From an uncultured Bacilli bacterium (GTDB lineage: Bacteria; Bacillota_I; Bacilli_A; RF39; UBA660), in assembly GCA_910584255.1 (NCBI GenBank), contig CAJTXV010000001.1, positions 17,130 to 81,129 on the forward strand: a stretch of DNA of 64,000 bases, written 5' to 3'. The position numbers were made by a program, and so were the translations under genes. Position 1 is the stretch's first letter; the number at the start of each line of letters is the position of its first letter. Below are positions 2,095 through 33,524 of the stretch, piece by piece. The notes beneath the pieces are model-generated. The model worked only from the letters and a program-made list of their open reading frames with translations, was not told where the DNA came from and made no database searches.

Positions 2095-3534
2095 TTATTT
2101 AGATAATAATTTACGTAAAAAACCTTTTTTTCTTAAAAGGGAATTTACCTTTGCTTCTGGTGAAATGAGTTTAATGACTGTTCCAAGTATGGTATATAAT
2201 GTTCCATAACCAGTTACATAATTTCTTTTACTATAAGAAGAATCTATAATAATTACTGGAACCGTATTAGAAAAATCTACTAATTCTTCCTTTTGAGTAG
2301 CAGATAAAATCTCTTTTTTAACTCCAAATAAAGATGAAATAACCAGAGAATATTTATCTTGGCAGTAGTCTTTAACAAAGGCTAGATTTTGATCAACCTG
2401 TGTCATTACCTGTTTCATAGATACTTCATCATTATATTGATCCATTCTATGATTAATTACAATCAATTGATATTTATCATTATCTAAAACACTTTTCATC
2501 TGTTCTTGATTGAATAAAAGTCCAGAATCTGTCAGTGCATATTCCACAGTTCCATCACCAGTTGGGGAAAGCCCATTAATCATATAATTGACAACTGATA
2601 AGTTTTCTTGATCGACTAAAACAAGTGCTTTGGCATCAATTTGCTTTAAGGCATTAGACATTGAATACTCGGATGTTACATTTCCATAAATGTTTTGAAC
2701 CCCTGCTGTATTATGAAGCGGAAATAATGAGTAATAAGTAAGTGTCCCTGGAGTTACTTGACTGTTAAAGAAGGCTGGTGGATTATTCATTAAATTCATA
2801 AACTTAGAGCAATCTACTTCATCGTAGTTATAAAATAAGATAATGTCATTCGTTTCTAAACTGAATTGATCATTTACGCAAAAAGCCTTGGCGTTATTTG
2901 GCAATATTTTGAAGGTTTGAAGGGATCCAATTTTTTGATCCGTATCCTTCCACCTTTCCCCATTTCCACGAAATAGCATTCTACCTAAATCATTAAACTC
3001 ATTCAGTCTTTCCTCTCCTAGCAATAAATTTTTTCCAAAAACAACACCTATTTTCATGTTTGGTAGCGACTCATAATTTAATTTATAAAGTGTCTTGGCA
3101 ATCGACTTATATCCATCCATCGTAGGATTTGTCATAATTGGATGAACAAAAATAGTTTTGTTAGTATTTAAAGAAGTAACAAAAGATTTTAAATGATCAC
3201 TAATTCGAGCACTGTCTAGAAAACAAAAAATATGTAGTTTTACACTATTAGGATTTTGTAATGCCATTGATAAGTTCTGAAAAGTAGGACTTTGATTCCA
3301 TATGTTCTCATCTACTACTTTATCAACAAATGGAAATGATAAGGCATCTGCATTTCCAGTACTTAGTATTTGATAACCAGTTGTATAATTAAATGCTTTG
3401 GTATCAACAGTTGTAAAAAATTCAGAAATAGAACACTGATCCATTACAGGCATTACATCTTTAGTATACATATCACAAGAGTCTTTATGCTCAATTCCTA
3501 ATCCATTAATTAAAAATAAAACCGTTTTTTTCAC
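2095..3534 (-). CDS. Hypothetical protein, possibly alkaline-phosphatase-superfamily/metalloenzyme-like
   Basis: 479-aa ORF. The N-terminus MKKTVLFLINGLGIE resembles the start of the phosphopentomutase/iPGM-type metalloenzyme fold, but the GNSEVGH-type motifs are absent, so the assignment is weak. Confidence 0.3.
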   Translation of the reverse strand: MKKTVLFLINGLGIEHKDSCDMYTKDVMPVMDQCSISEFFTTVDTKAFNYTTGYQILSTGNADALSFPFVDKVVDENIWNQSPTFQNLSMALQNPNSVKLHIFCFLDSARISDHLKSFVTSLNTNKTIFVHPIMTNPTMDGYKSIAKTLYKLNYESLPNMKIGVVFGKNLLLGEERLNEFNDLGRMLFRGNGERWKDTDQKIGSLQTFKILPNNAKAFCVNDQFSLETNDIILFYNYDEVDCSKFMNLMNNPPAFFNSQVTPGTLTYYSLFPLHNTAGVQNIYGNVTSEYSMSNALKQIDAKALVLVDQENLSVVNYMINGLSPTGDGTVEYALTDSGLLFNQEQMKSVLDNDKYQLIVINHRMDQYNDEVSMKQVMTQVDQNLAFVKDYCQDKYSLVISSLFGVKKEILSATQKEELVDFSNTVPVIIIDSSYSKRNYVTGYGTLYTILGTVIKLISPEAKVNSLLRKKGFLRKLLSK

Positions 3535-3616: not shown

Positions 3617-4312
3617 TTACTTTACCTTTTTTGAAACTATGAGTAAATATGAATCCTTTGGAGAATAATAACACGTTTGCAATACTAAAATATCATCATT
3701 ATGCACATCTATGGTTGTATTATAAATAGAATGTTTTTGAAACCATTCTAAATGTCTTTGATATTCTTCTTGACTCATTTTCAGTTTCATATGTTGGAAA
3801 TCATTTGTAACAATTACTACAGAAAAGATTTGATAATGGTAGGAAGTATCTCTTCCCTGTAAAACAAAACCAGGATGCTCTCTTAAAAAAGAGGGATCTG
3901 TATATTCTTCTAAAATATGAAATGATGTATTTATAGTTTTTGAATTATGACCATAGATTAAAAGTTTTCGATCATCTAAATGATTTCGATAATCTAAAAA
4001 AGGTGTTCCCATTTTATCTTCTTCTCCAGTTAGTGAATGATTTAAGTAAAAAGAATTATCTGTTCCTTGTACAATTGGAATTTCAATATTCGTATTTGCA
4101 ATTGTTAATGTTAAAGGAGCAGATATATTATTTTTCAAATTAAAAGTAGAAGTATCGGAAACAAGAGAAATTGATTCTAAAAAAATATCTTTTTCTACTA
4201 CGTCTTTATGGTACATCTGTAGAAAGTTCTCATTATATGAGAATAAGAAAAACAGTAAATTATAACTAAAAAATAAGAAAAATATAATTTTATAAAAAGA
4301 ATAGTGGTGCAA
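3617..4312 (-). CDS. Sortase, class B (SrtB family)
   Basis: Shares FLDYRN, IYGHN and the C-terminal active-site LVLQTCYY (TLxTC variant) with S. aureus SrtB (IVGWI..FMDFRN..ILYGHH..TLSTC). N-terminal membrane anchor. Confidence 0.7.
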   Translation of the reverse strand: MHHYSFYKIIFFLFFSYNLLFFLFSYNENFLQMYHKDVVEKDIFLESISLVSDTSTFNLKNNISAPLTLTIANTNIEIPIVQGTDNSFYLNHSLTGEEDKMGTPFLDYRNHLDDRKLLIYGHNSKTINTSFHILEEYTDPSFLREHPGFVLQGRDTSYHYQIFSVVIVTNDFQHMKLKMSQEEYQRHLEWFQKHSIYNTTIDVHNDDILVLQTCYYSPKDSYLLIVSKKVK

Positions 4313-4381
4313 GAGAAAATCCCCCTTCTATATACTCCTACTTATAATATACAAAAAAAAATTAAAAAACGTCTAAATTTT

Positions 4382-5188
4382 TTAATTTCTATTCTCATAC
4401 ATAGTTAATTTTGCATGTAAGACCATTTTTTCAGCACTGTTATAACAAGTAGATAATGTTAATATCTTATCTGTAGGTCCCACCACCGTAGGAAATTGAT
4501 ACACACTACGTTTTGTAATTAAATCAATAAAATTCATATATTGTTCATCACTAATAAAATTCGTATATAGGTAATCATCTGTTGTTTTAATATGATATAT
4601 ACTAAAGACTTCAAATACGTAATTATAAAATGGAGTAGATATCTTTAAGATATGATTTTCAGAATTGTCAAACCATTCACGATTTAATGTGTTTTTTAAA
4701 GTTCCAAACATTGTTCCATCTACACGACCGTGTGCATAAATAATGGTATTAGTATCTAAATCCGTAGTTGAGTTACGATAGTCAAGAAATACCCAACCTG
4801 CACTATTATAAGTACGGTCTAAAGACTTTTTTAAATAATACTTATTATCCGTATGTTGAACAAAAGGATAATTGATATTTGTCCCTTTTACTTGAATCCA
4901 ACCAACCACTTCACTGTTTCTTTTTAATAATGGTTCAAAATCAACTCCCATTAGTTTTTCTTCTGTATGAATGGCATCTTCCACTATGACATCTGCTGCA
5001 ACTTTGGGTGGTTTTTCATCAATTACTACTAAATTCTGTACTTCATGAATTTGCTTAGTCGTTTCTTGATTATCTTTCATCCATGTCAGAATATGGAAAG
5101 ATGAATAGCAAATTCCCCCCAAAAAGGTAACTGCTAATGATATTAATACAAAATCTAAAAATAGAATTTTTTTCATAATCGCCTCCAA
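4382..5188 (-). CDS. Sortase, class B (SrtB family)
   Basis: VVGWIQVKGTNINYPFVQ, FLDYRN, IIYAHG and LTLSTCYNS match the SrtB signature (IVGWIKLSGTSLNYPVLQ...FMDFRN...TLSTC). N-terminal TM segment. Confidence 0.8.
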   Translation of the reverse strand: MEAIMKKILFLDFVLISLAVTFLGGICYSSFHILTWMKDNQETTKQIHEVQNLVVIDEKPPKVAADVIVEDAIHTEEKLMGVDFEPLLKRNSEVVGWIQVKGTNINYPFVQHTDNKYYLKKSLDRTYNSAGWVFLDYRNSTTDLDTNTIIYAHGRVDGTMFGTLKNTLNREWFDNSENHILKISTPFYNYVFEVFSIYHIKTTDDYLYTNFISDEQYMNFIDLITKRSVYQFPTVVGPTDKILTLSTCYNSAEKMVLHAKLTMYENRN

Positions 5189-5213
5189 AAAAGAAAAAGA
5201 TTTAAGAAGTATC

Positions 5214-6104
5214 TTAAATCAGTTCTTCAATCGTATGTGTATTTGCAGAATCTTCTACAGGAATGTTTCTTTTAATCACTTGTCGAACAATATATACTGT
5301 AATCGACAAAATCATAGCTCCTAAGACTAATCCTACACAAAGTGCTAATTTAGGTGCATCCATAGTACTAGCTACTTCGATTTTTTCTTCTTCCTGTTTT
5401 TCTTCAGAAACTCTAATTCCACGAACTAATAATCGATGCGTATTCACAGCATATGGAGTACAGGTAACTAAGGTCACATAATCTTTTCCCTCTTGAATTT
5501 TTAAAGGTTCCGTATTCGAAGGATCAATTACTAAGACCTGATCCACCTGATAAACGAGTACTTGTTCCATCACATATATATAGAACTTATCACCCTTTTT
5601 TATTTGATCTAAATCCGTAAACAGTCTAGCAGAAGGAAGACCTCTATGAGCAGCTAAAATGGAATGCGTTGTATTTCCACCCACTGGAAAGGAACTTCCT
5701 TCTAAATGACCTACACCCTTTTGTAGAACTTTAGCACTTGTACCATGATAGATTGGAATTTTTACATCAATCTTTGGTATTGCAATATATCCCATCGTCC
5801 CTGATTGATCGACATCTAAAATTTCTAAATAATCACTAGAGTTCGCTACTTCACTCGAAGTAAAGACATCTGTTATATTTGCATTTGTTAATTTTTTATT
5901 ATAATTCTCTGCTTCCCTAATCAGTTTTTTAGAATCTTGCTTTGTATCATTTTTTACTTGATTCTGATAATTTACAATTACTTGATCAAATTCTTTTTCT
6001 TTTATTACATTACTAATCACAGGATATAACATAATTGACAGTCCAGAAATAAATAGAATTGTGAATAAAAACAATGGAAGATATTTTTTAATAATATTTT
6101 TCAT
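5214..6104 (-). CDS. Sortase, class C (pilus-polymerising)
   Basis: TLVTCTPY active-site motif, catalytic His region AAHRGL, N-terminal TM plus a C-terminal hydrophobic anchor (LALCVGLVLGAMILSITVYIV) typical of class C sortases. Confidence 0.85.
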   Translation of the reverse strand: MKNIIKKYLPLFLFTILFISGLSIMLYPVISNVIKEKEFDQVIVNYQNQVKNDTKQDSKKLIREAENYNKKLTNANITDVFTSSEVANSSDYLEILDVDQSGTMGYIAIPKIDVKIPIYHGTSAKVLQKGVGHLEGSSFPVGGNTTHSILAAHRGLPSARLFTDLDQIKKGDKFYIYVMEQVLVYQVDQVLVIDPSNTEPLKIQEGKDYVTLVTCTPYAVNTHRLLVRGIRVSEEKQEEEKIEVASTMDAPKLALCVGLVLGAMILSITVYIVRQVIKRNIPVEDSANTHTIEELI

Positions 6105-6112
6105 CTATATAA

Positions 6113-7645
6113 TTATACTTCTAATTTATTTTTCCTTCTATAAACAAATACAAACCAGATTGCTCCAATCATAAGAACTGCACCTGAAACTGTAAATATA
6201 ATCGTACCCATACCACCAGTAATAGGTAATACTCCTACTTTTGCATTAGAAACCCTTGCAGTAATTACACCATCTGTAGCATCTGCATCTGTAATTGTTA
6301 CTTGAATTGCATCATTAATTAAAGAATAACCTGCAGGAGATTTTGTTTCTTTTAACCAATAACTTCCTTCTTTTAATCCTTTTACAGTTACTGAACCGTC
6401 GCTTCCAGTTGTAACTGTTCCTTGTAAATCTGTTAAGTTTTCATCTCTATAGACTTCAAATGTAGCACCTGATAATAGATTTGTTTCGTTATTTCTTTCG
6501 TGCTTAATGATTGATAATGCATATGTTTTAACAATAACTACACCCGGACCATCCAAAGTGATTGGAGTGGTTGAAGTACCTGTTCCATATGGATCATTGG
6601 AATACTCTAATTGAGCACTGTTGTTATTATTTCCACCAATTACAGCATTATTATTTAATCTTCCTTTATAAGTAACTTTTAACGTTGTACTTTTTACATA
6701 AGTAAGATCAAATTCAATTGTAATTTTTTGACCTTCTACTGTAATGGTAGCCACTTGTTCACCTGTAGCATTTGTTACGGCTCCAGTTGTAGCATTTACT
6801 GTTAAGGCTGTATCACCATCACTTATACCTAACGCATCCATCCCAGAGAATGTAAGACCATCTGACATAGTATCAGTTAATACGTATTTTTTGTTTGTTG
6901 CATTGGTTGGGTATTGTGGAACCGTCAAATTAATTTCAAATGGGATATCTTCTCCAATTTCAGCAGAAATATTAGTTTTTCCATTACCTTTTTTTATGAT
7001 TCCTGCTTCACTTACCTTAGCAACAATACTTGCATCTTGTAATGACCAAGTTCCATCTACTACTGAAATTGCAATGTTTCCAACCATTACTGCATAAACT
7101 TTTGACGTAGAAGTTGGCAAAATTAGATAAGAACCTGCATCCGCAGTTACTGTAGAAGTAGTTCCAGAGGTAGCCATTTGCGTACCCTCTACTGAATGTT
7201 GTTTAATATATCCGGCATATACACTTGCTAGTGTATCTAAAGTAGATTCTGTTATTGTACTACCATTTTCAATATTTCCACTCGTTAGTAACATATAATC
7301 TTGAACAGATAAACTACTATATGTAGCTGACTGTGCTAAGAAAGCCTTAAAATCAGCTGTAAAATCATAACTAATCACATTGGAAGTTTCATTATAATAT
7401 GCATCTAAGATTTTATAAGCCTTTAAAGTATCTCCAGTATCTACATTACTAATTATAATAGTTCCCTGATTTGTCACATAATGACTATTTGCATCTGTAG
7501 CTAAACTCTTTGTATTATCAACAGTAATTGTAATAGCCGCAGCAGAAACTGTTGTTACAAATCCAAGAAAAGCAAACATTACTGTTAATAATAATTTTTT
7601 AATACTAATTTTCATTTTCACTACTGTCGTCCTTTCCATTTTCAT
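6113..7645 (-). CDS. Major (backbone) pilin subunit, LPXTG-anchored
   Basis: Signal peptide. C-terminal LPITGG sorting motif followed by a hydrophobic span and RRKNK tail. E-box-like YWLKETKSPAGY within a CnaB-type domain (GATFEVY...GSVTVKGLKEGSYWLKE). Gene lies directly upstream of the class C sortase gene. Confidence 0.8.
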   Translation of the reverse strand: MKMERTTVVKMKISIKKLLLTVMFAFLGFVTTVSAAAITITVDNTKSLATDANSHYVTNQGTIIISNVDTGDTLKAYKILDAYYNETSNVISYDFTADFKAFLAQSATYSSLSVQDYMLLTSGNIENGSTITESTLDTLASVYAGYIKQHSVEGTQMATSGTTSTVTADAGSYLILPTSTSKVYAVMVGNIAISVVDGTWSLQDASIVAKVSEAGIIKKGNGKTNISAEIGEDIPFEINLTVPQYPTNATNKKYVLTDTMSDGLTFSGMDALGISDGDTALTVNATTGAVTNATGEQVATITVEGQKITIEFDLTYVKSTTLKVTYKGRLNNNAVIGGNNNNSAQLEYSNDPYGTGTSTTPITLDGPGVVIVKTYALSIIKHERNNETNLLSGATFEVYRDENLTDLQGTVTTGSDGSVTVKGLKEGSYWLKETKSPAGYSLINDAIQVTITDADATDGVITARVSNAKVGVLPITGGMGTIIFTVSGAVLMIGAIWFVFVYRRKNKLEV

Positions 7646-8402
7646 TACTTATTTTCTCTTTTTTCTTTTTCTTTACTATATAATAAACAACAATTCCAAT
7701 TCCAATTACACAAACAGCAAATATACTTACATATACTACAATATCATCGTAGGTACTTGGCGAAAAAACTGTATTATGATTTCCATTTGTTGGTGTTGGA
7801 GTAGGCGTTGGTGTTGGTGTTGGTGTTGGTGTTGGTGTCGGTGAAATTGAAGGCGATGGGCTTGGTGTTGGCACAGCCACTGCTTCCGTTTTTACATCGA
7901 CAGGTATATCATAAATGTAATTCCCATCTTCAATTTGTGGTATAGATACAAGGAATGGTATTGCTTGATATTTTTCTCCGTTATCAATTACATCCTCTGT
8001 TAAAACTAAATATATACCTGGTGTCAGATTATTAAACAAAACATGCCCTGTTTTATTCGTATTTTTTTGATAATCATACGCTATTTGATTTTCTACAATA
8101 ACCTCTGATAATTCTTTTGCCAAGGCTCCAGTAGCAGAAGCGGAAAGATCATTTAAATTTTCCGTTCTGTTAGTAAATGAACCTATATAACTATAATTTC
8201 CAATCGTGTCTACATCTGCAATCTTATAAATGGAAACTACTGCATTTTCAATTGATTTTTCATCATATTGATAATTTAAATTCATACTGCTTGCATGTGT
8301 TAAGTCAATAGCAGCAAATACGTTACAAGTATATACAAATAGTAACAAAATTCCAAGAAAGAAACTATTTCTTATTTTTTTTAGCATTTTGTCCACCTCC
8401 AT
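7605..8402 (-). CDS. Pilus-associated surface protein with PT-repeat linker and C-terminal membrane anchor (no LPXTG)
   Basis: Signal peptide, CnaB-like segment (GHVLFNNLTPGIYLVLTED), a (PT)n linker, one C-terminal TM helix and a K/E-rich tail. Sits between the tip-adhesin and backbone-pilin genes with ATGA-type overlap. Confidence 0.5.
   Translation of the reverse strand: MEVDKMLKKIRNSFFLGILLLFVYTCNVFAAIDLTHASSMNLNYQYDEKSIENAVVSIYKIADVDTIGNYSYIGSFTNRTENLNDLSASATGALAKELSEVIVENQIAYDYQKNTNKTGHVLFNNLTPGIYLVLTEDVIDNGEKYQAIPFLVSIPQIEDGNYIYDIPVDVKTEAVAVPTPSPSPSISPTPTPTPTPTPTPTPTPTNGNHNTVFSPSTYDDIVVYVSIFAVCVIGIGIVVYYIVKKKKKEKISNENGKDDSSENEN
7803..7845 (-). repeat. Hexanucleotide microsatellite (ggtgtt)n encoding the PT-repeat linker
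   Basis: Direct read: gttggtgttggtgttggtgttggtgttggtgtcggtg, about 7 tandem 6-nt units inside the 265-aa ORF. Confidence 0.8.
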
Positions 8403-10491
8403 TTTTCTTTTTCATAAAATATGTACATCCGACTGCGGCTAAAACCATTACTATAAGTCCACCAATGATAAATGGAAGAGTTCCAGATCCACCAGTTTCT
8501 GGTAGGATATTAATCTTTTGGCTATATACTACTACACTATATTTTCCATCCGTTCCATCTACTGCATAATCTTTAATGCTAACTACACCAGAGGAATCGA
8601 CTGACATTTCAAGTGGTTTTTCCAATATGATATATCCTACGGGAACCTTTGTTTCTTTCAAATAGTATTTTTGCTCTGGTATTAAGTTTTCAAATGTTAA
8701 TCCAGATTCTATCTCCTGAGTACATGCAGCATCGCTATAAAGAGTAAATTCTGATCCTTCTAACATAACATTTTCTGCATCTTTTCTGATAATATTTAGT
8801 GAAACATTAGAAACTTTTATAGTTGCACTTGCTTTATATTCTCTCGTTGTATCTAATAAGTAATTATTGCTAGCTAGTGCACCAGTTAATTCTACCGTTT
8901 TAACAACATCTGAAGCATGTGCATCACTTGCTGTATATTCTGCTTTCACAACTACACTGCCACCTGCTGGAATTGAATCAATTCTAACATAGCTATCATT
9001 TAATAATGTGTATTCTGTACCGTTAACAAATCTTACGTCCGTATCTTCATGAAGCATTACGTCAGTGATTGGGAATGTAGCCGGATTTGTTACTGTGATA
9101 TCAAATTGAACTTTATCCCCTGCTTTATAATATCCTGTATCGCTTGGATTAGAAATTTCTTTGCTAATTGTCGGTACAAAGGTTCCTGCACTTTGCATCC
9201 ATTCACCATAGATTACAACATCTTCTGCAGGCATTTCAAATGATGAGGTCTTATACCAACCTAAGAATTGGAATCCAGCAGCCACAGGATTTGAAGCAAT
9301 GGAAACTGTTTCTCCTGGTGCATAAGATTGCTCTGCTGGTAGTAAACTAGTAGCATTGTCTGGAAGTACAGTTCCTTTGAACTCATACGTTACTTTATAT
9401 TTTAGTTGTTCAAACTCTCCTACAAATAAAACTGGCTGAGCTACCATTTGGAAGATTCCATCTTCATCCACAGTTACATCTGTCGTTTGCCAACCTAAGA
9501 AACGGTATCCTGAGACAATGTCTCCTGCCTTTAGACTATCTACTTTTACTTCTTCACCAGCACTATATTGTTTTTCTTTTGGAAGTGTATATCCTTCTGG
9601 TTGAAGTGATCCATTTAATGAATAAGTAACAGCATAGGTTGTATCTTTGGTAAATCTACCTTTTAAGGTCACTTCCTTTGCTGGCATTCTGAAACTTGAA
9701 TTATTGATTGTAACTTCATCAGAAGTCCATCCTGTAAAAGTATATCCTGGAACTGAAATATTATTTATAACACCTACCGTATTACCCTCAGCATAAGACA
9801 TTTCCTCTGGTAATGCTGGTGCATTTTCTGGTACATCACCTTCATAAGCATAACTAACTTTATATAATGTCTCTGATTCACGTCCCATAAATACATGGAC
9901 TGTATTAGAACTTGTCGTCGCTGCATTGGATTTTCCAAAGGCAGTATTATAAAAATCCATTCTTGTATTGCTACCTAAGAAAGGTGTCTTTGTAATAATT
10001 CCAACTGTAATCTTACATCCTGCTTGTAAATTCTTAATCTTAAAAGAAACGGTTCTAGTGGCTTCATTATATGTTAATCCAGCAACACCATCTACTACAT
10101 ATCCTCCACAAGCCGTAGTATTGTCACTTCTTTGAACCGCACCAATACTACCATTCTCACTTTGTACAAATCCTACAAAAGTGAGCCCATCTGGGATTTT
10201 ATCCTCGATGTAAATATAATCACTTCGAACATCTGCAACGGCATCATCGCTAGACATTATCAAATTCTTATCTTTCCCATCATACATAACATCTAGATAA
10301 TATGTTAATTCACTATTTTCATTGACACGAACATGATTATCTAAAAGTGAATATGTGGATTTAGATAAAAATATAGTTGCTGCAAGTAAAGTTGCTGAAA
10401 CTACTACAAGTCCTAAGAAAGCACCAAAAAATAGTCTATTCTTTTTTTGTAATTTCTTTTTACTCTGTTTTTCCTTTTGTTTTTGCATCAA
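8365..10491 (-). CDS. Pilus tip adhesin / LPXTG-anchored surface adhesin with three Listeria-Bacteroides (Flg_new-type) repeats
   Basis: Signal peptide. C-terminal LPETGGSG followed by a hydrophobic span and KKKNGG tail. Three repeats of the YxVTYxxNG...GYTFxGW type (e.g. VPGYTFTGWTSD, GYRFLGWQTTD, AAGFQFLGWY). C-terminal CnaB-like domain. First gene of the sortase cluster; the likely start is the ATG at 10486-10488. Confidence 0.75.
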   Translation of the reverse strand: MMQKQKEKQSKKKLQKKNRLFFGAFLGLVVVSATLLAATIFLSKSTYSLLDNHVRVNENSELTYYLDVMYDGKDKNLIMSSDDAVADVRSDYIYIEDKIPDGLTFVGFVQSENGSIGAVQRSDNTTACGGYVVDGVAGLTYNEATRTVSFKIKNLQAGCKITVGIITKTPFLGSNTRMDFYNTAFGKSNAATTSSNTVHVFMGRESETLYKVSYAYEGDVPENAPALPEEMSYAEGNTVGVINNISVPGYTFTGWTSDEVTINNSSFRMPAKEVTLKGRFTKDTTYAVTYSLNGSLQPEGYTLPKEKQYSAGEEVKVDSLKAGDIVSGYRFLGWQTTDVTVDEDGIFQMVAQPVLFVGEFEQLKYKVTYEFKGTVLPDNATSLLPAEQSYAPGETVSIASNPVAAGFQFLGWYKTSSFEMPAEDVVIYGEWMQSAGTFVPTISKEISNPSDTGYYKAGDKVQFDITVTNPATFPITDVMLHEDTDVRFVNGTEYTLLNDSYVRIDSIPAGGSVVVKAEYTASDAHASDVVKTVELTGALASNNYLLDTTREYKASATIKVSNVSLNIIRKDAENVMLEGSEFTLYSDAACTQEIESGLTFENLIPEQKYYLKETKVPVGYIILEKPLEMSVDSSGVVSIKDYAVDGTDGKYSVVVYSQKINILPETGGSGTLPFIIGGLIVMVLAAVGCTYFMKKKNGGGQNAKKNKK

Positions 10492-12583: not shown

Positions 12584-15500
12584 TTATTCATTCAGTCCTC
12601 TTTTTCCTAAGATATAGTTTTTAATTCGAATCACATCGGGTGCCGTCACTAATCCATCTTGATTGATATCAACGATTTTTGTGACTAAGAAGTCGACTTG
12701 TTTCTTTCCTAAGACATAGTTCTTTGCTTGAATGTTATCAGCTGCTGTTACTAAGCCATCTCCATTTAAGTCCCCTCGAACGGTGATTACTAGTTCATCG
12801 TAAACAAATCCATCAATTTCTAGTTTGATTACCATGTAACTTCCTATGAATTTATCTTCTTCCGTAATCTCTACTCCATCACTTCCATAGATATGAAGTG
12901 TTTCTCTATCATTTAAGAAGTTTCCAATAAAATCTGTCTTCTTTGTTTTCGGATCCATTCCTATTACATAGTCTTTCGTTTCATTTCTGTCAATCGTATA
13001 AATATCACTTCGAATCGTATATTCTAGACTATCCCTTGTAATATTGATTTTATATTCTTGAGTTGTATATCCATCTTTCGCAATCACTTCTACGATATAA
13101 GTACTAATCGACCTATCTACTAAATTCACGTCTCCCATAAGATTGACTGTTGCGTTACTGTCTTTTGGTACCGCCGTAATTTCACTTTCTAGTAGTTTTC
13201 TCTTTGATTTTGAGACTTGGATATTATATTCAAAAGTATCTGGTTCAAAAGTAAATGGATATCCTAAAATTTCTAATCTCTCTAGTCTTACTTCACTTTC
13301 TGATTCTTTCTTAACATGAATTACATAGGTCTTTATACTTCCATCTTCAGCTGTTACTACGATATTTCTTGTGCTTTCTCCATCTGTTACTCCTAGTGTT
13401 TCATGTCCCACTACGGTCGCCTTACTACTTTCTGTTTTTACTTTAAATCCTAAACTATTTACATCTCTGCCTAACTCTAATGTATATTCTAAAGTTTCTT
13501 TATCGAAACTTGGATTTAAAGTTCCACCACTTGGAATTAAACTACTTAAATAATTATTACTTGATATTGGATTTTCAACTGTGATGGTGTATGTTTTTAC
13601 TACTCCTAATTCACTTGTTACTGTTACATTGATTGTATTGGTTCCTGCTTTTAATAGGATTATTCCATCTCCTACTACTGTCGCATTCTTATCATCTGAA
13701 TCTGCTTCTACTTTTGCATATTCTTCACTGGTTGTTAGATTTACTTGATATGTTAATGTTTCTTTATTAAATCCTATATCGTAGAGCCTTTCATCTAATC
13801 CAAAATAAAGTTTTAATTCTTTTAAATTATTGTTCTCTGATTGTTTTCTATTTACATTTACATAATAAGTTCTAGTAACTCCTATCATACTTCTAACTTT
13901 GATTGGAATTCTATTGATTCCTTTCTTTAAAGCATATGGATTTCCATTTCCTATTTTAGATGTAATTGTTGCGCTACTATCTTCTGCTGTTGCCTGGACT
14001 ATAATCTCTTCTATCTCGCCTTCTACTTCTACATTATACTCTAATGTAGTTGGATTAAATTTTGGATCTAATGTTCCATGATCTACACTTAAACTACTTA
14101 AGAAGTTATTTGATGACATTTGACGATTTACATATAGGATGTATTCTTCTTCTAGGGAATTATCACTTGATGTTACTTTGATATGTACTTCATTCATTCC
14201 AATCTCAAAGTTTTCATTTCCTGTGACTACAACTGTTGCATTGCTTTCTTCTTTTTCATAACTTAGTTCTAGTTCAGTTACCTCATAATCTACATCAACA
14301 TAATATTCAAATATTTCTTTGTTGAAGGTTTGATCTAAATCGTATCCTTTTATTTTTAAGTCTGTTAAGTAAGCACTTTTTACTTCAGATCGATTGACTG
14401 TAATTGTATAAATGTTGGTAAGTCCTGATTCACTAGTTACTGTAATATTGATAGTATTTTCTCCTATATTTAAATCATAATTTTTTAGTCCCAATACTGT
14501 AGCATTACTATCTTCTAGTGTTCCTGTAAATTCTATATTGTCATCTTCTGCCCCTACTTCAATTGTATAAGAATTTATCTCTTTATCAAAGGTTTGATTC
14601 CAAACACCAACATTACTATAAAGACTCGCTAAATAATTGTTATCACTTGCCTCTTTGGTGATTAGAATCTTATAATTTTTGTCTGTTCCTGCTTCAGAAG
14701 TTACCACGATGTCAAAATAGTTTTCTCCTGCATGGATTGGTTTTAATCCAGTACCAACTATTGTTGCATTACTATCTTCTGTTTTTGCCTTAATTATTAC
14801 ACTATTGATATTATTTGGAACCTCTACTGTATAGAACGTAATTCCTTTATGAAAGGTTGGAACTAACGTATAGCCTTCAACATCTAAAGAAGATAAATTA
14901 TTGTTCTTACTTCCTTCTTTCGTAATAGTTAAGGTATAAGTCTTTTTCGTTGTTCCATCTGGCGCTGTTACTTCAATTGTTACTGTATTTTCTCCTGTTT
15001 GAAAGTCTTGATTTCCACTTACTACATAGGTTGCTTCAGCCTCTGTTGGTTGTATCGTTGTAAAATCTAAGTAATCTTTACTTGTCTTTAAAGTATAGCC
15101 TAAAGTATTACTATTAAATGTTGGACTTAGCATATGACTCTTGACAACTAGACTAGAAAGTGTTGCATCACTTGATTTCTTCCTTGTTACTACGATTTGA
15201 TAGTCTCTTTGTACTCCATCGGTTCCAACCACAAAAACACTAATTCCATTCTTTCCTACATTTAAATGATACTTTCCTGTTCCTAATACTTGAACTTCAT
15301 CACTTAAGCTTTCTGCTGTTACTGTGATATCTGTAATATTATTTTCTACTTCTAATGTATAGTTCAATGTATCTGGATTAAAGATTGGACTAATTTCTCC
15401 TCGGTTGGTTTCTAAAGTTAATAACCCAAGATTTTCTGTTGTTGATTCTTGTCTTGTAATCGAAAGGGTATAGGTTTTTTTATTTCCTTTTGGAGCTGTC

Positions 15501-18500
15501 ACTATTACTTGTATTTCTCTTGGAACTCCTACTTCTAATCCTGTCGTATCTCCAACAATATCCACAGTTGCATCTTTATCTTCTGGGACCCCCTCAATAT
15601 GTACTTCCGTTTTATTGTTTGGTATCTTTACATCATAGAATATCGTTGTTTCTTGGAAATGTGGTGAAAGTCCCCCTTCTTCTACATAAAGAAAACTTAA
15701 ATCATCATTCGTTGACTGATCCCTGATGACTCTCACTACATAGTCCTTATAATTTCCTGCTTCACCTGTAACTCTCATGGTTATATCATTATTTCCTATA
15801 GTTAATGGATAATACCCATTTCCAGTTACTCTCGTACTACTACTAGTTGGTATTCCTTCTAGAATTATATCTGATATTTCATACTGTACATTAATTAAGT
15901 AATCATATCCAGTAACACTTGGATTTTCTGACTTCGTTACAGTACTTCCCCTGTTATTCTTAATCTCTTTGAATGTGATATCTTCATCTGTTTTCGCTTT
16001 ATTTACTGTAATTATATAGTCATTTGTTAATCCAGATTCACTTGTTACTGTAATCGTGATTTTGTTCTCTCCTTCTACTAATGAATAGATTCCGTTTCCT
16101 GAAACAGTTGCCATAGCATCTTCTTTGATTCCTTCCATATTTATTGTACTTACTTGTGCTCCTACTTCCATAGAATACTCATTTTTCGCCTTATCAAATT
16201 CAGGGGTTAGATTTCCTTCGCTTACCTTTAAACTCCTTAAGTAATTATTATCTGAGACTTCTTTTCTTACCTTAATAGTATATACTTTATATTCTTTGTT
16301 CTCTGCAACCACTGTAACCGTAATTTCTCCTACACTTTGATTTAAATTATTATTTCCTCGTATTATATATGTCGCATTCGTATCTTCTAATTCTACTTTT
16401 ACTTTTACACTCGTTACTTCTCTTGGTATCTCAATATTATATTCTAATGTGTCTTTGTCGAAGGTTGGATCTAACGGATATTCCTCTACTTCTAATTTCA
16501 ATATGTTAGTATTTGAAGATTTCTCTCGGTTAATTACTATCTCATATACATTGGTATCTCCATCTGGGGCAGTCACTGTTACATTTATGATATTTACACC
16601 TGATTTTAGTTTATGGACTCCATCATTCGTAACACTCGCTGAGGTATCCTCTAAGGTCACTCGAACATCTACTTCACTTACTTCATTTCCTACATTGATT
16701 TGATAAGTGTTTATAAATGAATTAAAGGTTGGGTCTAAGGTAAGCACACTTCCATTATGAAGTACTTCTAAATTACTTAAAAGTGTACTTACATTTACTT
16801 CATGATGGGCATGAATAATATACGTTCTGATATCACCATTTTGCGCAGTAACCGTAATAATACAATCATTCATTCCTGCTTTTAAGTTTGTATTTCCTTT
16901 GATACTTACTTTTGCCTTTGGATCCTTTGGTACTGCATTTACCGTATATTCACTTACCGTTTTTGGTATCGTTACATAATATTCATACGTATATGGTTTA
17001 AAATCTAACGCTACAACTGGGTCAGTGATTTCTAATACCTTTAATAGATTATTTCCTGTTGAATCTCTATCAATATTATAAGTATAAACAATATTTTGAC
17101 TATCATCTTCACTGATGACTTCAATTTCAAAACTATTGATTCCTGGTTCTAACGCTACACTACTTAAATCACTTACTACTTCTTTACTTCCATCACTTTT
17201 TAACTTTCGATATATTACTTCTTGATATTCTGATCTTTGCGTTACTTCAAATCCTATACTTAATGTTTTAAATGGTAATTTTATATTATATTCTGTTGTG
17301 GTTTCATTAAATTGATACTGACAGTATGATGCATTACTATCACACAAATATGCATAAGAATTCTCTATCTTAATATCGATTGGATGCGGGTTACTTGATC
17401 CTTTACGATTAATAATTAGTTTATAAACTCTAACACTATCATCTGTTGCGGTTACTTCGATTTCATGAATCGTTTGTCCTGGTGGAAGTTTAATTGTTTC
17501 ATCTCCACCTACTACTTTAGCGTCTTTATCCTTGGCAATTGCCTTAATCTTTAAAGAAGTATGGGTTTCATCTAAGTTTAAGATATATTCTTCTACCGTT
17601 GGGTCATAATCGATTTCAACATCCCCATCATCTAAAGTAATACTCTCCAAGAAATTATTATTACTTAAAACCGACAATAATTTTATTCTGGCATATCCAT
17701 CTCCAGAATGTCCGACACCATTCTCATAGTATCCTCCTTCTGGATCTGGCATTGGCGTAAGATTTCCTATAGTTGTCGTCCAATTGTATCCACGACCATC
17801 AATCATCCTAGTTTCAGTAAATACTTTCCCAGAATAATGATTTGCCTGTCCAGAAGCAACTCCATTTTCAGTGATGGCATTACATCCCGCATGTCCTGAG
17901 ATGAAGGATGATCCACCACCAGCACCTTGACCGGCACCACCACCACCAGTGGAACCTCCAGCGCCACCACCATAGTAGCCACCGCCACCACCACCGGCAC
18001 CAATGCCATCGGAAAATGAGTCGTTATTACCACCGATACCAAAAGTTCCAGGATTTACAGTACCATAAGCACCACTAAAAATGTTAGTTCCAGCAGATCC
18101 ACCAACAGTTTGGGTTCCACCTTTTCCATTTTGATTATAATACCTATGCCCAGAGTAATACCCTCCTGCATAACCATTCAATCCACCAGCGTAACTTCCT
18201 TCACCAGCAGTATTATAATTGCTAACGGAAACACCACCACCTGCTCCTGCAACCATGATTCTGGATTTTAGAGAATTTAAATCATTCCAATCTCCCTTCA
18301 CTAAACGAACGTCTGTGGCTCCTCCTCCAGAAGCACCAAAAACACCATAACCATAAGCCTTTCTAGTATTTCCACCATATCCACCACCATTAAAGGTAGA
18401 TTCTCTACTTTGTTCCTTTCCTTGTTCACCAATATAGAAATAAAGTTTTTCACCTAAATTTAATTTAATTTTTCCTTTAGTATATCCGCCTTTCCCTAAA

Positions 18501-20950
18501 TGACTAGATTCCTTATCAGAAGTTCCTCCAGAAGCACCCCATAATTCAATTTCATAAAATCCTGAATATGGAACAATGTACTCAATAGGGCCTTTTGTTA
18601 ATCCTATGCCTTGCCCAACATCTCCGATATCAGATTTTTTCACAACATGAATTGTATAAACGGTATCATCTACTCCATCTAAATGGGAAGTAATTGTTAT
18701 TATACTCTCCTCTGCATCAATGTATTTATTTCCAGTAATTGTGACTACAGTTCCTTCAAAGTATGTTTCTGTTTCAAAATCAAGACTGAATATACTATCT
18801 AAAATCTCTATATTATACTCTAACTTTTCTGAAGTAAATCCAAATGGGATAGAAGTCTTAACTGATTTTAATAATGATGTTCTTTTTCTTGTAAAGTTAA
18901 AAGTATATAATTGATTTTCACTATTATCTTCACTCTTTGATAATAGCGTTAAAGTCTTTCCATTTTCATTAAATTCAAATTGTCCTTCTCCTGAAACTGT
19001 TTGTCCAGTAATATGTTTGATTGCTTCTAAATGAATATAGTTTACATTGGTAGGAAGTTCAATATTATATTCATAAGTATTTGGGCTGAATCCTTCATAA
19101 GGAATTCCATTGATTTTAACACCATCTAAGAATTTATAATTACTAATTTCACGACTTACATGAATAACATAAGTAACAACTTTTCCATCATAGTTTAGCA
19201 CGGTAATTGTATAAATATTTTCACCTTCTGGGACCGTAAAGGTTCCTGTTCCTGTGACATAAGACCATTCCTCTTCTGAAACAGCATCAATCGTAATTGT
19301 TTCATCTCTATGAGAGAGTTTTAAATTATATTCAAAAATATCAGAATCAAATGTTGGTGTATAAGAATTATTTGTTCCACTTACTGTTAAAGAACTAAGT
19401 CCAGTTGCTTCATGATCATAACGATAGGTAATTCTAGCATACCCATCCCCATCATGTCCTGCACCTTCATCATAAGTTCCACCTTCTGGTTTTGGCATTG
19501 AGGTTAAACTCCCTAATGCAGTCGTCCAATTGTATCCTTTTCCATCAATCATTACAGTATCAGTAAATATTTTTCCACTATAATGATAAGAATCTTCTAT
19601 TTGTGAATAAGTTGTAACTTTTGGTGTTCCATCTTCATTAATGGCAATCGCACCAGCATGCCCTGAGATGAAGGATGATCCACCTCCAGCACCTTGACCG
19701 AAACCACCGCCACCAGTGGCACCTCCAGCGCCGCCACCGTAGTAGCCACCGCCACCGCCTCCAGCTCCGCCTCCAGAAGAATGTGATTCATTGTTACCAC
19801 CTATTCCGAAAGTTCCAGGATTTACAGTACCATAAGCGCCACTATAAATGTTAGTTCCAGCAGATCCACCAGCAGTTTGGGTTCCTCCTTTTCCATTTTG
19901 ATTTGCATAACCATGTCCAGAGTAATATCCACCATCATAACCATTCAAACCTCCAGCATAGCTTCCACCACCAGCACTATTATAAAGACTATAACCAATT
20001 CCACCACCAGCACCAGCAACCATGATTCTAGACTTCAGGGATTCTAGATTATCCCAGTCGCCACCAACTAAACGGACATCTGTAGCTCCTCCTCCAGAAG
20101 CACCAGCAGGGTAACCACCTGCTCCACCACCATTGAATTTGCTTTCTCTATCTGCTGGTTTTCCTTGTTCTCCAACATAAAAATAAAGTCTTTCCCCCGC
20201 TGTTAAATAAATTTTTCCTTTTGTATAGCTTCCCTTTCCGTGATGAGTGTATTGGGGGGCATCCTCATAGACTCCTCCTGAAGCTCCCCATAATTCTATA
20301 TCATAATATCCTGTTTCAGGTATTATATATTCATTTGCTTGTGCTTCCGTAAAATCTCTAACTAATGTTTTTCTATTAATCGTAAAAGTGTAAATTCTTT
20401 CATACCCAGTCACTGAACTAGTTACTTTAATCCTAATTTCATTTTTTCCAGGATGTAAATTTAAAATATCAAGAACTTCATAGATAGTATCAGCAGAATT
20501 AGTTACTATAGGTGTTACTTTATCTATTTCATATTTTACTTCTAAATCATAGGTATCTACTTTTGGGTCAAACGAAAAGTCAACTTCAGCAAAAGATACA
20601 TCATCTAAACAAGGAAGATTTCTTTTGATATTTAGCGTATATAAAGATAAATTTCCATAGTGATCAATTACAGAAATATAATGTGCTGTATTCACATCTA
20701 ATTCTTGATTTCCTGTACCAAAAATATAGTAATTATCTAAAGAGGTTGTATAAGTAATTTCAGAATTTACATGTTCTGTATCTAAATATAAATCATACTC
20801 ATATTTATTTTCTTCTAAGGAATTCATCATCCCATTTTTTATAGTGATTGAATCTAAGGCATGAGAAAGAGCTTCTACCTTATTTGTAGAAAAGAAACAG
20901 ATAGCAATTAAAAATATGGATATTAAAGTAATTTTTCCTAATCTCTTCAT
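12584..20950 (-). CDS. Giant secreted surface protein (2788 aa): signal peptide, two tandem glycine-rich domains (ALK/LTK-type Gly_rich-like), about 17 cadherin-like beta-sandwich repeats, C-terminal type I dockerin
   Basis: Single uninterrupted ORF. Signal peptide MKRLGKITLISIFLIAICFF...VEA. Two modules of about 300 aa with YDIELWGASGG, GGGATDVRLV, RIMVAGAGGG and long poly-Gly runs (GGGGGGYYGGGAGG). Repeated ~85-aa units LSSLxVxxGxLxPxFxxxxxxYxxxV...ATV...GxNxIxIxVTAxDGxxKxYTIxIxR. The C-terminus DLNGDGLVTAADNIQAKNYVLG...DINQDGLVTAPDVIRIKNYILG matches the duplicated dockerin calcium-binding segment. Confidence 0.85.
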   Translation of the reverse strand: MKRLGKITLISIFLIAICFFSTNKVEALSHALDSITIKNGMMNSLEENKYEYDLYLDTEHVNSEITYTTSLDNYYIFGTGNQELDVNTAHYISVIDHYGNLSLYTLNIKRNLPCLDDVSFAEVDFSFDPKVDTYDLEVKYEIDKVTPIVTNSADTIYEVLDILNLHPGKNEIRIKVTSSVTGYERIYTFTINRKTLVRDFTEAQANEYIIPETGYYDIELWGASGGVYEDAPQYTHHGKGSYTKGKIYLTAGERLYFYVGEQGKPADRESKFNGGGAGGYPAGASGGGATDVRLVGGDWDNLESLKSRIMVAGAGGGIGYSLYNSAGGGSYAGGLNGYDGGYYSGHGYANQNGKGGTQTAGGSAGTNIYSGAYGTVNPGTFGIGGNNESHSSGGGAGGGGGGYYGGGAGGATGGGGFGQGAGGGSSFISGHAGAIAINEDGTPKVTTYSQIEDSYHYSGKIFTDTVMIDGKGYNWTTALGSLTSMPKPEGGTYDEGAGHDGDGYARITYRYDHEATGLSSLTVSGTNNSYTPTFDSDIFEYNLKLSHRDETITIDAVSEEEWSYVTGTGTFTVPEGENIYTITVLNYDGKVVTYVIHVSREISNYKFLDGVKINGIPYEGFSPNTYEYNIELPTNVNYIHLEAIKHITGQTVSGEGQFEFNENGKTLTLLSKSEDNSENQLYTFNFTRKRTSLLKSVKTSIPFGFTSEKLEYNIEILDSIFSLDFETETYFEGTVVTITGNKYIDAEESIITITSHLDGVDDTVYTIHVVKKSDIGDVGQGIGLTKGPIEYIVPYSGFYEIELWGASGGTSDKESSHLGKGGYTKGKIKLNLGEKLYFYIGEQGKEQSRESTFNGGGYGGNTRKAYGYGVFGASGGGATDVRLVKGDWNDLNSLKSRIMVAGAGGGVSVSNYNTAGEGSYAGGLNGYAGGYYSGHRYYNQNGKGGTQTVGGSAGTNIFSGAYGTVNPGTFGIGGNNDSFSDGIGAGGGGGGYYGGGAGGSTGGGGAGQGAGGGSSFISGHAGCNAITENGVASGQANHYSGKVFTETRMIDGRGYNWTTTIGNLTPMPDPEGGYYENGVGHSGDGYARIKLLSVLSNNNFLESITLDDGDVEIDYDPTVEEYILNLDETHTSLKIKAIAKDKDAKVVGGDETIKLPPGQTIHEIEVTATDDSVRVYKLIINRKGSSNPHPIDIKIENSYAYLCDSNASYCQYQFNETTTEYNIKLPFKTLSIGFEVTQRSEYQEVIYRKLKSDGSKEVVSDLSSVALEPGINSFEIEVISEDDSQNIVYTYNIDRDSTGNNLLKVLEITDPVVALDFKPYTYEYYVTIPKTVSEYTVNAVPKDPKAKVSIKGNTNLKAGMNDCIITVTAQNGDIRTYIIHAHHEVNVSTLLSNLEVLHNGSVLTLDPTFNSFINTYQINVGNEVSEVDVRVTLEDTSASVTNDGVHKLKSGVNIINVTVTAPDGDTNVYEIVINREKSSNTNILKLEVEEYPLDPTFDKDTLEYNIEIPREVTSVKVKVELEDTNATYIIRGNNNLNQSVGEITVTVVAENKEYKVYTIKVRKEVSDNNYLRSLKVSEGNLTPEFDKAKNEYSMEVGAQVSTINMEGIKEDAMATVSGNGIYSLVEGENKITITVTSESGLTNDYIITVNKAKTDEDITFKEIKNNRGSTVTKSENPSVTGYDYLINVQYEISDIILEGIPTSSSTRVTGNGYYPLTIGNNDITMRVTGEAGNYKDYVVRVIRDQSTNDDLSFLYVEEGGLSPHFQETTIFYDVKIPNNKTEVHIEGVPEDKDATVDIVGDTTGLEVGVPREIQVIVTAPKGNKKTYTLSITRQESTTENLGLLTLETNRGEISPIFNPDTLNYTLEVENNITDITVTAESLSDEVQVLGTGKYHLNVGKNGISVFVVGTDGVQRDYQIVVTRKKSSDATLSSLVVKSHMLSPTFNSNTLGYTLKTSKDYLDFTTIQPTEAEATYVVSGNQDFQTGENTVTIEVTAPDGTTKKTYTLTITKEGSKNNNLSSLDVEGYTLVPTFHKGITFYTVEVPNNINSVIIKAKTEDSNATIVGTGLKPIHAGENYFDIVVTSEAGTDKNYKILITKEASDNNYLASLYSNVGVWNQTFDKEINSYTIEVGAEDDNIEFTGTLEDSNATVLGLKNYDLNIGENTINITVTSESGLTNIYTITVNRSEVKSAYLTDLKIKGYDLDQTFNKEIFEYYVDVDYEVTELELSYEKEESNATVVVTGNENFEIGMNEVHIKVTSSDNSLEEEYILYVNRQMSSNNFLSSLSVDHGTLDPKFNPTTLEYNVEVEGEIEEIIVQATAEDSSATITSKIGNGNPYALKKGINRIPIKVRSMIGVTRTYYVNVNRKQSENNNLKELKLYFGLDERLYDIGFNKETLTYQVNLTTSEEYAKVEADSDDKNATVVGDGIILLKAGTNTINVTVTSELGVVKTYTITVENPISSNNYLSSLIPSGGTLNPSFDKETLEYTLELGRDVNSLGFKVKTESSKATVVGHETLGVTDGESTRNIVVTAEDGSIKTYVIHVKKESESEVRLERLEILGYPFTFEPDTFEYNIQVSKSKRKLLESEITAVPKDSNATVNLMGDVNLVDRSISTYIVEVIAKDGYTTQEYKINITRDSLEYTIRSDIYTIDRNETKDYVIGMDPKTKKTDFIGNFLNDRETLHIYGSDGVEITEEDKFIGSYMVIKLEIDGFVYDELVITVRGDLNGDGLVTAADNIQAKNYVLGKKQVDFLVTKIVDINQDGLVTAPDVIRIKNYILGKRGLNE
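17651..18583 (-). repeat. Internal gene duplication, copy 2 of the glycine-rich domain module within the giant surface-protein gene
   Basis: Protein segment about 790-1100 is nearly identical to segment about 200-520 (e.g. SLKSRIMVAGAGGG, GGSAGTNI(Y/F)SGAYGTVNPGTFGIGGNN). The spurious plus/minus ORFs at 17803-18042 and 19597-19800 translate to nearly the same peptide. Confidence 0.7.
19391..20353 (-). repeat. Internal gene duplication, copy 1 of the glycine-rich domain module
   Basis: See copy 2. Long near-identical nucleotide stretches (e.g. ccaccaccggcaccaatgcc / ccgccgcctccagctccgcc regions encoding GGGAGGG runs). Confidence 0.7.
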
Positions 20951-27496: not shown

Positions 27497-27511
27497 AACT
27501 AACCCTTCTTC

Positions 27512-28288: not shown

Positions 28289-28296
28289 ATATCCTC

Positions 28297-30858: not shown

Positions 30859-30893
30859 AATATCACCTGCCTTTACTACGGTTTATTTACTTC

Positions 30894-33506: not shown

Positions 33507-33524
33507 AATAGTTCACACTCCTTT

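Follow-up and report, generated by a model that had tools for sequence, protein, structure and literature searches.

Class B sortases and a candidate basal pilin in a three-sortase pilus operon of an uncultured gut Bacillota

In canonical pilus systems, attachment to the cell wall is the work of the housekeeping sortase. We analyzed a pilus locus that raises the question of what additional sortases do when they are encoded beside the pilus subunits themselves. The window, by which we mean the whole stretch of 64,000 nucleotides (64 kb) analyzed here, comes from an uncultured Bacilli bacterium (contig CAJTXV010000001.1, positions 17,130 to 81,129). At positions 3617-10491 of the window, on the minus strand, lie genes for pilus proteins, for one class C sortase (SrtC), and for two sortases of class B type (SrtB-1 and SrtB-2). 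Based on sequence comparisons, we consider it fairly probable that SrtC polymerizes the pilus and that SrtB-1 anchors a base pilin, here called P2, to the cell wall.

A six-gene pilus locus with three sortases

The locus consists of six co-directional open reading frames (ORFs); adjoining ones overlap or lie no more than 82 nt apart. In order, they encode an LPETGG tip adhesin, P2 (a protein with a Pro/Thr-rich linker), an LPITGG major pilin, SrtC, SrtB-1, and SrtB-2 (Table 1). Judged by its gene content, this is a chromosomal sortase-dependent pilus operon of an uncultured low-GC gut Bacillota. A first-pass annotation of the same DNA had already described a six-gene pilus operon, and we found all six genes and every motif that it quoted. 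Relatives of the locus genes derive from gut and rumen metagenomes, and one member of an SrtB-2-family cluster carries the name 'Mycoplasma sp. CAG:877', which would fit an RF39-like lineage of uncultured Bacilli. A scan for promoters and terminators gave matches no commoner than in shuffled sequence and has no bearing on the operon boundaries.

Sorting-signal architecture occurs in only three proteins of the window, and all three are the predicted pilus subunits. These carry two kinds of signal: the tip adhesin and the major pilin end in LPxTGG motifs, and P2 ends in a different element, on which the question of the class B sortases turns.

P2 ends in a candidate class B-type sorting signal

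P2 starts with a signal peptide. The first-pass annotation had called it a Pro/Thr-linker protein without a sorting signal. It has no LPXTG motif, but it does have an invariant [SP]PST[YF]D[DS]I element, after which come a hydrophobic stretch and a KKKK tail. In P2 itself, this element contains Thr217-Tyr218-Asp219, numbered from the ORF start at 8402. All close homologues keep HNT-[IV]-[FI]-[SP]-P-S-T-[YF]-D-[DS]-I directly before the hydrophobic segment and the Lys-rich tail, with linkers that vary.

We compared this element with known class B substrates, using the usual subsite numbers, so that P2' is a position in the signal and P2 is the protein. Pro at P3 and Asp at P2' are common to class B substrates, and P1 is mostly Thr; described SrtB substrates include DNPKTGDE in Bacillus anthracis, PVPPKTGDS in Clostridioides difficile, and TNPKSSDS in Listeria, and the B. 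anthracis enzyme requires the P2' Asp (PMC11987632). The S-P-S-T-Y-D-D of P2 fits this frame save for the Tyr at P1'. Because P1' in the P2 orthologues is always Tyr or Phe and never Gly, the [SP]PxTG pattern of C. difficile is absent from them; the P2' Asp, the hydrophobic segment, and the basic part of a C. difficile-type signal are present in P2. A literature search for the literal motifs (NPKTYD, SPSTYD, and similar) returned nothing relevant.

The wider family of P2 places this element in context. When the P2 domain was searched by indexed words, just 9 close relatives emerged; a profile search, run against 1.84 billion representative proteins, gave 4136. We counted C-termini among the best 150 of these 4136 relatives, or among 156 sequences after adding six closer homologues. 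An LPxTG ending was present in 58 of the best 150, mostly as LPQTG followed by LWWPVP, and xPxTxD was present in at least 52 by pattern count. In the set of 156, xPxTxD occurred in 73 sequences, most often with Tyr at P1' (25), then Gly (18), Leu (8), Phe (6), and Ser (6), and these 73 also tended to have Ile at P4' (50/73) and Tyr at P7' (54/73). Across the wider family, xPxT[Y/F/L/M]D, LPQTG, or xPxTGD occupies the same position. That one pilin family bears either an LPXTG or a class B-like signal at the same place is a strong argument for a genuine sorting signal in P2 and for P2 as the base subunit.

Three of the profile-search relatives (P0326, P0362, and P0377; 459-548 aa) join a P2-like N-terminal pilin domain to a C-terminus that resembles a sortase active site (TLFTCTYGG..R, FTCTPGG..R). 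They may represent fusions of a pilin with a sortase, or else gene calls that were merged.

P2 resembles basal pilins

P2 is probably the base subunit of the pilus. Its pilin fold matches, an invariant Lys, a Pro/Thr-rich stalk, a candidate signal of its own, and relatives that bear LPQTG suggest that it would be incorporated at the base. Residues 43-171 align to the N-terminal domain (positions 84-208) of the NCBIfam major-pilin model NF033902. We modeled the domain with AlphaFold2 (AF2) and obtained a predicted local distance difference test score (pLDDT) of 75-89 over approximately residues 31-150. The top Foldseek matches of this model in the PDB were Gram-positive pilins, most of them either N-terminal domains of major pilins (CppA at 1e-7, SpaD, SpaA, FimP, and EbpC-N) or basal pilins (SpaE, EbpB, and GBS52).

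The last strands of the domain contain the invariant Lys, within VDVK-x-E. This residue is our candidate for the lysine that accepts the pilus shaft, an assignment that is positional only.

SrtB-1-type genes adjoin proteins with P2-like signals

If P2 is a class B substrate, the pairing of enzyme and signal might be visible in related genomes. The SrtB-1 family has more than 6000 proteins, and a scan of the contigs of representative genomes with SrtB-1 found one related genome only (L001). The neighborhoods that we compared are 80 metagenomic loci round family members (904 kb), together with loci obtained by exact look-up; we refer to individual loci by number.

A cassette of tip adhesin, P2, major pilin, SrtC, and SrtB-1 recurs in four places. 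In L001 it is fully syntenic, with 75% identity in SrtB-1; L099/L100 is the second instance; in L002 the SrtB-1 identity is 54% and P2 ends in SPSTYDS; and in L027 P2 ends in PPNTMD. The cassettes of L002 and L027 are without SrtB-2. Outside pilus loci, SrtB-1-type genes adjoin, across gaps of 7-763 bp, genes for surface proteins in which xPxT[Y/F/G]D is combined with a membrane segment and a basic tail. The motifs of these partners are NPKTYD (L018, L019), VPQTFD (L042), TPDTYD (L052), VPNTYD (L053), NPATYD (L076), and NPKTGD (L060), and the proteins are otherwise mutually unrelated. Such adjacency was found in 6 of 8 non-redundant cases (binomial p ~2e-5).

We assign P2 to SrtB-1 on the strength of both observations, the cassettes that do without SrtB-2 and the adjacency of SrtB-1-type genes to xPxT[Y/F/G]D proteins. 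P2 is the best candidate substrate of the class B sortase. We also considered SrtB-2 as the reader of the P2 signal and rejected it, as P2-type signals are alike in cassettes with and without SrtB-2.

Could the adjacency be incidental? In that case SrtB-1 and SrtB-2 would be general anchoring sortases, and P2, perhaps as a pilus base or chaperone, would be a type I membrane protein that stays in the membrane without being cleaved. Genes of both SrtB types do stand alone in housekeeping blocks (glyS ... polA) of related genomes, the membrane segment of P2 precedes a long cytoplasmic-type tail, and no terminator or promoter signal separates transcription units. We nevertheless think this explanation rather unlikely, given that xPxT.D..I..Y is strictly conserved right before the P2 membrane segment, where homologues bear LPQTG, and that unrelated proteins encoded right next to SrtB-1-type genes bear the xPxT.D element as well. 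The order tip-P2-major pilin-SrtC-SrtB-1 is, moreover, kept down to about 50% SrtB-1 identity and in differing chromosomal neighborhoods.

The housekeeping block itself is conserved as glyS ... ThiF-LexA-PolA-Fpg in one group of loci (L004, L016, and L017, at about 8001-9800) and in another (L010, L101, and L103). An SrtB-1-type gene directly follows glyS there, and an SrtB-2-type gene can follow approximately 8 kb along. In these positions both SrtB types also behave like general sortases.

SrtB-2 relatives point to a different partner. Among six non-pilus loci with SrtB-2-family genes, three have a large PPxTG surface protein encoded directly beside the sortase gene, with endings of PPNTGV, PPKTGV, and PPKTGI and no P2' Asp; in the remaining loci the gene stands alone in a housekeeping block. 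This suggests that an SrtB-2-family gene and a PPxTG protein form a dedicated pair, with a C. difficile-like signal minus the P2' Asp. The 64-kb window encodes no PPxTG protein. SrtB-2 is kept within the operon across orthologues down to 44% identity, and this retention argues that it is functional.

The partners also bear on whether the SrtB genes belong to a heme- or iron-uptake system of Isd type. Among solved enzymes, the nearest to SrtB-1 is the SrtB of B. anthracis, whose substrate is IsdC. Within the window, though, neither a substrate of NPQTN or NEAT type nor an Isd-like transporter is encoded, the genes next to the locus have no relation to such a system, and the SrtB-1-type relatives adjoin diverse non-Isd surface proteins or housekeeping blocks, so that a heme-uptake role appears very improbable.

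Class and active sites of SrtB-1 and SrtB-2

Both enzymes had been called SrtB-type in the first-pass annotation, and both calls held. SrtB-1 scored 174.5 bits on the class B model TIGR03064, above the cutoff of 153.75. SrtB-2, at 31% identity to SrtB-1, matched the same model best, at 123.1 bits and so below the cutoff; it belongs to a separate family of class B fold. In a structure comparison with its AF2 model (pLDDT 84), the 19 class B PDB chains came first (E 1e-16 to 2e-11, target template modeling score 0.64-0.84), and chains of classes A, C, and E matched at E 2e-8 or weaker. Compared with known enzymes, SrtB-1 scored 140 bits against B. anthracis SrtB, 121 against C. difficile SrtB, and 92 against Spy0129, and SrtB-2 scored 93 bits against C. 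difficile SrtB. The deposited SrtB-2 gene call (P0130, 199 aa) begins 32 codons inside the ORF and cuts off the N-terminal membrane anchor. Because the orthologues P0131-P0133 span the full 231 aa, we favor the TTG start at 4312.

Both active sites are without the canonical catalytic Arg, a feature that the first-pass annotation had not noted. In HMMER and MAFFT alignments, the catalytic Arg (R243 in B. anthracis, R217 in C. difficile) aligns with Lys254 of SrtB-1 and Tyr222 of SrtB-2, and the conserved class B Arg at the start of strand beta8 is found in neither protein. The His and Cys are invariant in both families. Among SrtB-1-type genes of the fetched loci, the Arg position is Lys in 66 and Arg in 24, with no correlation between the choice of Lys or Arg and the P1' residue (Tyr or Gly). 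The interchange of Lys with Arg across the SrtB-1 family makes Lys look like a replacement that works. Nearly all members of the SrtB-2 family have Tyr or Phe at this position, with no conserved basic residue nearby.

Such replacements raise the possibility that one or both proteins, mainly SrtB-2, are dead pseudo-sortases that persist as scaffolds or as factors that hold substrates. A published description has Cys, His, and Arg strictly conserved throughout the known sortases (PMC3019223), against which the Lys of SrtB-1 and the Tyr of SrtB-2 stand out, and our literature search on Arg-less or pseudo-sortases found no paper on natural exceptions. What makes inactivity improbable in our view is that His and Cys never vary in either family, that Lys and Arg interchange freely in an SrtB-1 family that includes a sortase in housekeeping position, and that half of the six non-pilus SrtB-2-family loci have the PPxTG protein beside the sortase gene.

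SrtC, the shaft, and the tip

The class C sortase named in the first-pass annotation was borne out by a score of 292.4 bits on NF033745 (cutoff 160) and by an intact His-Cys-Arg triad, with the Cys in TLVTC215. Its gene starts 8 nt downstream of the major pilin gene. A lid-like motif (5856-5873) is at the expected position but reads D-V-F instead of D-P-[FWY], lacking the Pro; the same position is D-A-F in the SrtC of L001 and L027.

The major pilin scored 132.6 bits on NF033902 (cutoff 95) and also matched TIGR04226, PF16569 (GramPos_pilinBB), and PF17802 (SpaA). With its E-box, YWLKETKSPAGY, and LPITGG motif, it is the backbone pilin that the first-pass annotation had described. The solved CppA of Clostridium perfringens aligns with it over residues 60-471 (85 bits, E 4e-23). 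In this alignment, the lysine of WSLQDASIVAK210, which is not a canonical YPKN motif, falls on the lysine of CppA '...DVTINPK'.

The N-terminal region of the tip protein has no family match. It is followed by three repeats, as had been noted before, with the motifs PGYTFTGW, SGYRFLGW, and AGFQFLGW; they had been described as GW-type but are of the Flg_new family and not the 'GW module' of InlB.

With a class C sortase and LPxTGG pilins in place, we asked whether the class B enzymes could nevertheless polymerize or incorporate the pilins, like Spy0129 or SrtB1 of the C. perfringens necrotic-enteritis pilus, leaving SrtC an auxiliary role. Class B pilus polymerases exist (PMC3019223, PMC8088525), the retention of SrtB-2 in the operon down to 44% identity would fit such a role, and the SrtB-2 model also matches Spy0129 and the SrtB of the Streptococcus pneumoniae type II pilus. 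We judge this arrangement unlikely on several grounds. Every version of the cassette has a class C sortase with an intact triad. The tip and shaft signals are LPxTGG and not of the (E/Q)VPTG type of Streptococcus pyogenes pilins (EVPTG in Spy0128, PMC3019223). No SipA-like signal-peptidase family was matched among the six locus proteins and three downstream proteins. SrtB-1 is nearer to the anchoring SrtBs than to Spy0129 by the scores given above, and the sole class B-type signal in the locus sits on the small single-domain P2. The presence of SrtC, the LPxTGG pilins, and the closeness of SrtB-1 to anchoring SrtBs also speak against the analogy with the S. pyogenes T3 pilus that the first-pass annotation had drawn.

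A proposed pathway of assembly and anchoring

By what is known of these families, SrtC would polymerize the LPITGG shaft pilin through K210 and would cap the fiber with the LPETGG tip adhesin. The shaft would finally be joined to the conserved Lys of P2. The comparative evidence suggests that SrtB-1 would then recognize the xPxT[Y/F/L/M/G]D signal of P2; it would cleave P2 after the Thr, between SPST and YDD, and would transfer P2 together with the finished pilus to the cell wall. SrtB-2 may have as its substrate a PPxTG protein from another part of the genome, or P2 may be served by SrtB-2 as a second enzyme. The first-pass annotation had suggested a division of labor among the three sortases. 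In broad terms this is likely right, with roles that differ from those it proposed.

Several points weigh against anchoring by SrtB-1. We covered 64 kb of the genome, and a housekeeping class A sortase elsewhere is possible. In the metagenome sample, an adjoining substrate is missing for most SrtB-1-type genes, so the pairing rests on approximately ten loci. The NCBIfam models of SrtB signals, TIGR03063 (srtB_target) and NF033846 (NPXTG), do not match P2 or P2-like proteins even at E<=10; the NPKTGD protein of L060 scores 10.6 and 14.8 bits on them, below the cutoffs. An unusually long acidic tail follows the basic stretch of P2, which could simply stay membrane-anchored. BLASTP similarity between P2 and the major pilin is not significant, and the pilin assignment of P2 therefore rests on the hidden Markov model match and the fold match. 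The AF2 model is least confident, with a pLDDT of approximately 50-60, in the very strands that hold the candidate lysine. Finally, with the catalytic Arg gone, activity could be lowered or absent, above all in SrtB-2.

A broader proposal is more tentative, and we regard it as possible but doubtful. It would comprise a widespread class B signal, [SVI]-P-x-T-[Y/F/L/M]-D-x-I-x-x-Y, with a Thr-Tyr and not a Thr-Gly scissile bond, that replaces LPQTG in a clade of basal pilins; Arg-less class B catalysis by way of Lys in SrtB-1 and Tyr/Phe in SrtB-2; and a three-sortase assembly line in a wall-bearing RF39-like lineage. The first two would be undescribed features of sortase biology.

If the proposals are true, a dedicated class B sortase anchors the pilus in this lineage and reads a signal overlooked by present annotation models. 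Many uncultured gut Bacillota would then have base pilins and other surface proteins that are wrongly annotated as plain membrane proteins. Enzymologists and those who use sortase ligation would have an interest in a sortase that cleaves Thr-Tyr and tolerates bulky P1' residues, and also in sortases that function with Lys or Tyr instead of Arg; the latter would revise the His-Cys-Arg triad and offer new ligation specificities. Because the enzymes and substrates are encoded side by side, these predictions are directly testable with peptides.

Features of the locus and neighboring genes

The pilus locus is neighbored by genes for a phosphoglycerate mutase-like protein and a short-chain dehydrogenase/reductase (SDR), and by gltX. 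The first of these is conserved in L001 and L099/L100, where it comes right after the pilus locus on the downstream side and is accompanied by an SDR and a membrane protein. Further away in the window are genes for a large secreted protein, a conjugation-type block, and a VWA-DUF285 protein without a sorting signal; a protein resembling the last stands before the pilus cassette in L002.

Table 1. Coordinates of features in the window, with those of three surface proteins in other loci. For genes of the pilus locus other than P2, the coordinates given are those of the ORF.
Feature	Coordinates	Strand	Remarks
Tip pilin/adhesin	8365..10491	-	708 aa; DUF11-like domain, SpaA/CnaB domain with E-box, LPETGG (Pfam/NCBIfam)
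Three Listeria-Bacteroides repeats of tip protein (List_Bact; Flg_new/Flg_new_2/SHIRT)	9196..9879	-	About residues 205-432; each GY.F.GW
LPETGG sorting motif, tip pilin	8488..8505	-	LPDTGG or LPNTGG in orthologues
P2, candidate basal pilin	7605..8387	-	260 aa from MLKKIRN; ORF 7605-8402; signal peptide, pilin D1-like domain, Pro/Thr-rich stalk, class B-type signal
P2 beta-sandwich resembling pilin N-terminal domain	7878..8300	-	AF2 model; NF033902 positions 84-208
VDVKTE with invariant Lys, last strands of P2	7884..7901	-	Candidate acceptor lysine for shaft (inferred)
Pro/Thr/Ser-rich linker of P2	7788..7871	-	Length and composition variable among orthologues
SPSTYDD, candidate class B-type sorting motif of P2	7743..7763	-	P4 Ser, P3 Pro, P1 Thr, P1' Tyr, P2' Asp
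Hydrophobic segment of P2 signal, IVVYVSIFAVCVIGIGIVVYYIV	7674..7742	-	Conserved Ile P4' and Tyr P7'; followed by KKKKK
Major (shaft) pilin	6113..7645	-	510 aa, start possibly 7615; CppA/SpaH-EbpB-type, three domains
Pilin-motif-like element, WSLQDASIVAKV	7013..7048	-	K210 opposite Lys of 'TINPK' in solved CppA
E-box, YWLKETKSPAGY, major pilin	6326..6361	-	In C-terminal SpaA/CnaB domain
LPITGG sorting motif, major pilin	6212..6229	-	
SrtC, class C sortase	5214..6104	-	296 aa; H153-C215-R224 triad, C-terminal membrane anchor
SrtB-1, class B sortase	4382..5188	-	268 aa (264 aa from MKKILF at 5176); His153, Cys248, Lys254 at Arg position
SrtB-1 active-site stretch, TLSTCYNSAEKMVLHAKL	4406..4459	-	
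SrtB-2, divergent class B-fold sortase	3617..4312	-	231 aa, TTG start; His122, Cys214, Tyr222 at Arg position
SrtB-2 active-site stretch, LQTCYYSPKDSYLLIV	3635..3682	-	
Phosphoglycerate mutase-like protein	2095-3534	-	479 aa; no Pfam match, faint likeness to cofactor-independent phosphoglycerate mutase
Large secreted protein	12584-20950	-	2788 aa; 17 cadherin-like beta-sandwich domains, two ALK/LTK-type glycine-rich domains, C-terminal type I dockerin
Conjugative type IV secretion-like block	24668-36329	-	VirD4/TraG coupling protein, SpoIID + M15 peptidase wall hydrolase, VirB4/TraG-like ATPase, TrbL-like membrane protein
VWA-DUF285 protein	50439-54062	-	1207 aa; VWA, DUF285 ('Mycoplasma protein'), and Flg_new domains
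PPxTG surface protein beside SrtB-2-type gene (MucBP)	L010 7282-8970		
PPxTG surface protein beside SrtB-2-type gene (unknown)	L012 5843-8215		
PPxTG surface protein beside SrtB-2-type gene (VWA)	L014 9724-12111		

Comparison with known pilus and sortase systems

The SpaA pilus of Corynebacterium diphtheriae has SpaC at the tip, SpaA in the shaft, and SpaB at the base, and is built by a pilus sortase and a housekeeping sortase. The locus described here would share its three-subunit logic, with a small base pilin resembling the lysine-bearing N-terminal domain of the shaft pilin and with a second, non-polymerizing sortase. It differs in that the anchoring sortase of the SpaA pilus is an LPXTG-type housekeeping enzyme encoded elsewhere, whereas the anchor proposed here is an in-operon class B sortase with a class B-type signal.

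In the Cpp pilus of C. perfringens (CppA, SrtC; PDB 5xcc, 6ixy), the likeness is homology of the major pilin, including the region of the pilin-motif lysine and the E-box domain. To our knowledge, neither a class B sortase nor a P2-like xPxTYD protein has been reported at the Cpp locus.

Among class B enzymes, the SrtB of B. anthracis, with its substrate IsdC, and the SrtB of C. difficile are the closest solved ones, and their substrates share with P2 the P3 Pro, P1 Thr, and P2' Asp. Those enzymes have the canonical Arg, cleave before Gly at P1', and anchor heme-binding or general surface proteins; here, the substrate would be a pilin, with Tyr, Phe, Leu, or Met at P1'. The FCT pili of S. pyogenes (Spy0129/SrtC2) likewise have a sortase of class B fold within the pilus operon. 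That enzyme polymerizes, works with SipA, and reads (E/Q)VPTG, whereas the present locus has SrtC and LPxTGG signals, and none of the nine proteins scanned gave a SipA-like match.

The necrotic-enteritis pilus of C. perfringens (VR-10B) consists of CnaA-FimA-FimB, with two SrtB genes flanking the locus, and its putative base pilin, FimB, carries an SrtB-type and not an LPXTG signal (PMC8088525). That locus is without a class C sortase and has a signal-peptidase-like gene, and a class B enzyme has been proposed as its polymerase (PMC8088525). Here, in contrast, there is a canonical SrtC, and Tyr occupies P1' of the candidate class B signal, which TIGR03063 does not match. In the association of class B sortases with a pilus operon, and in a putative base pilin with a signal other than LPXTG, the two systems are alike, and the VR-10B pilus is the closest precedent for the proposed arrangement of P2 and SrtB-1.

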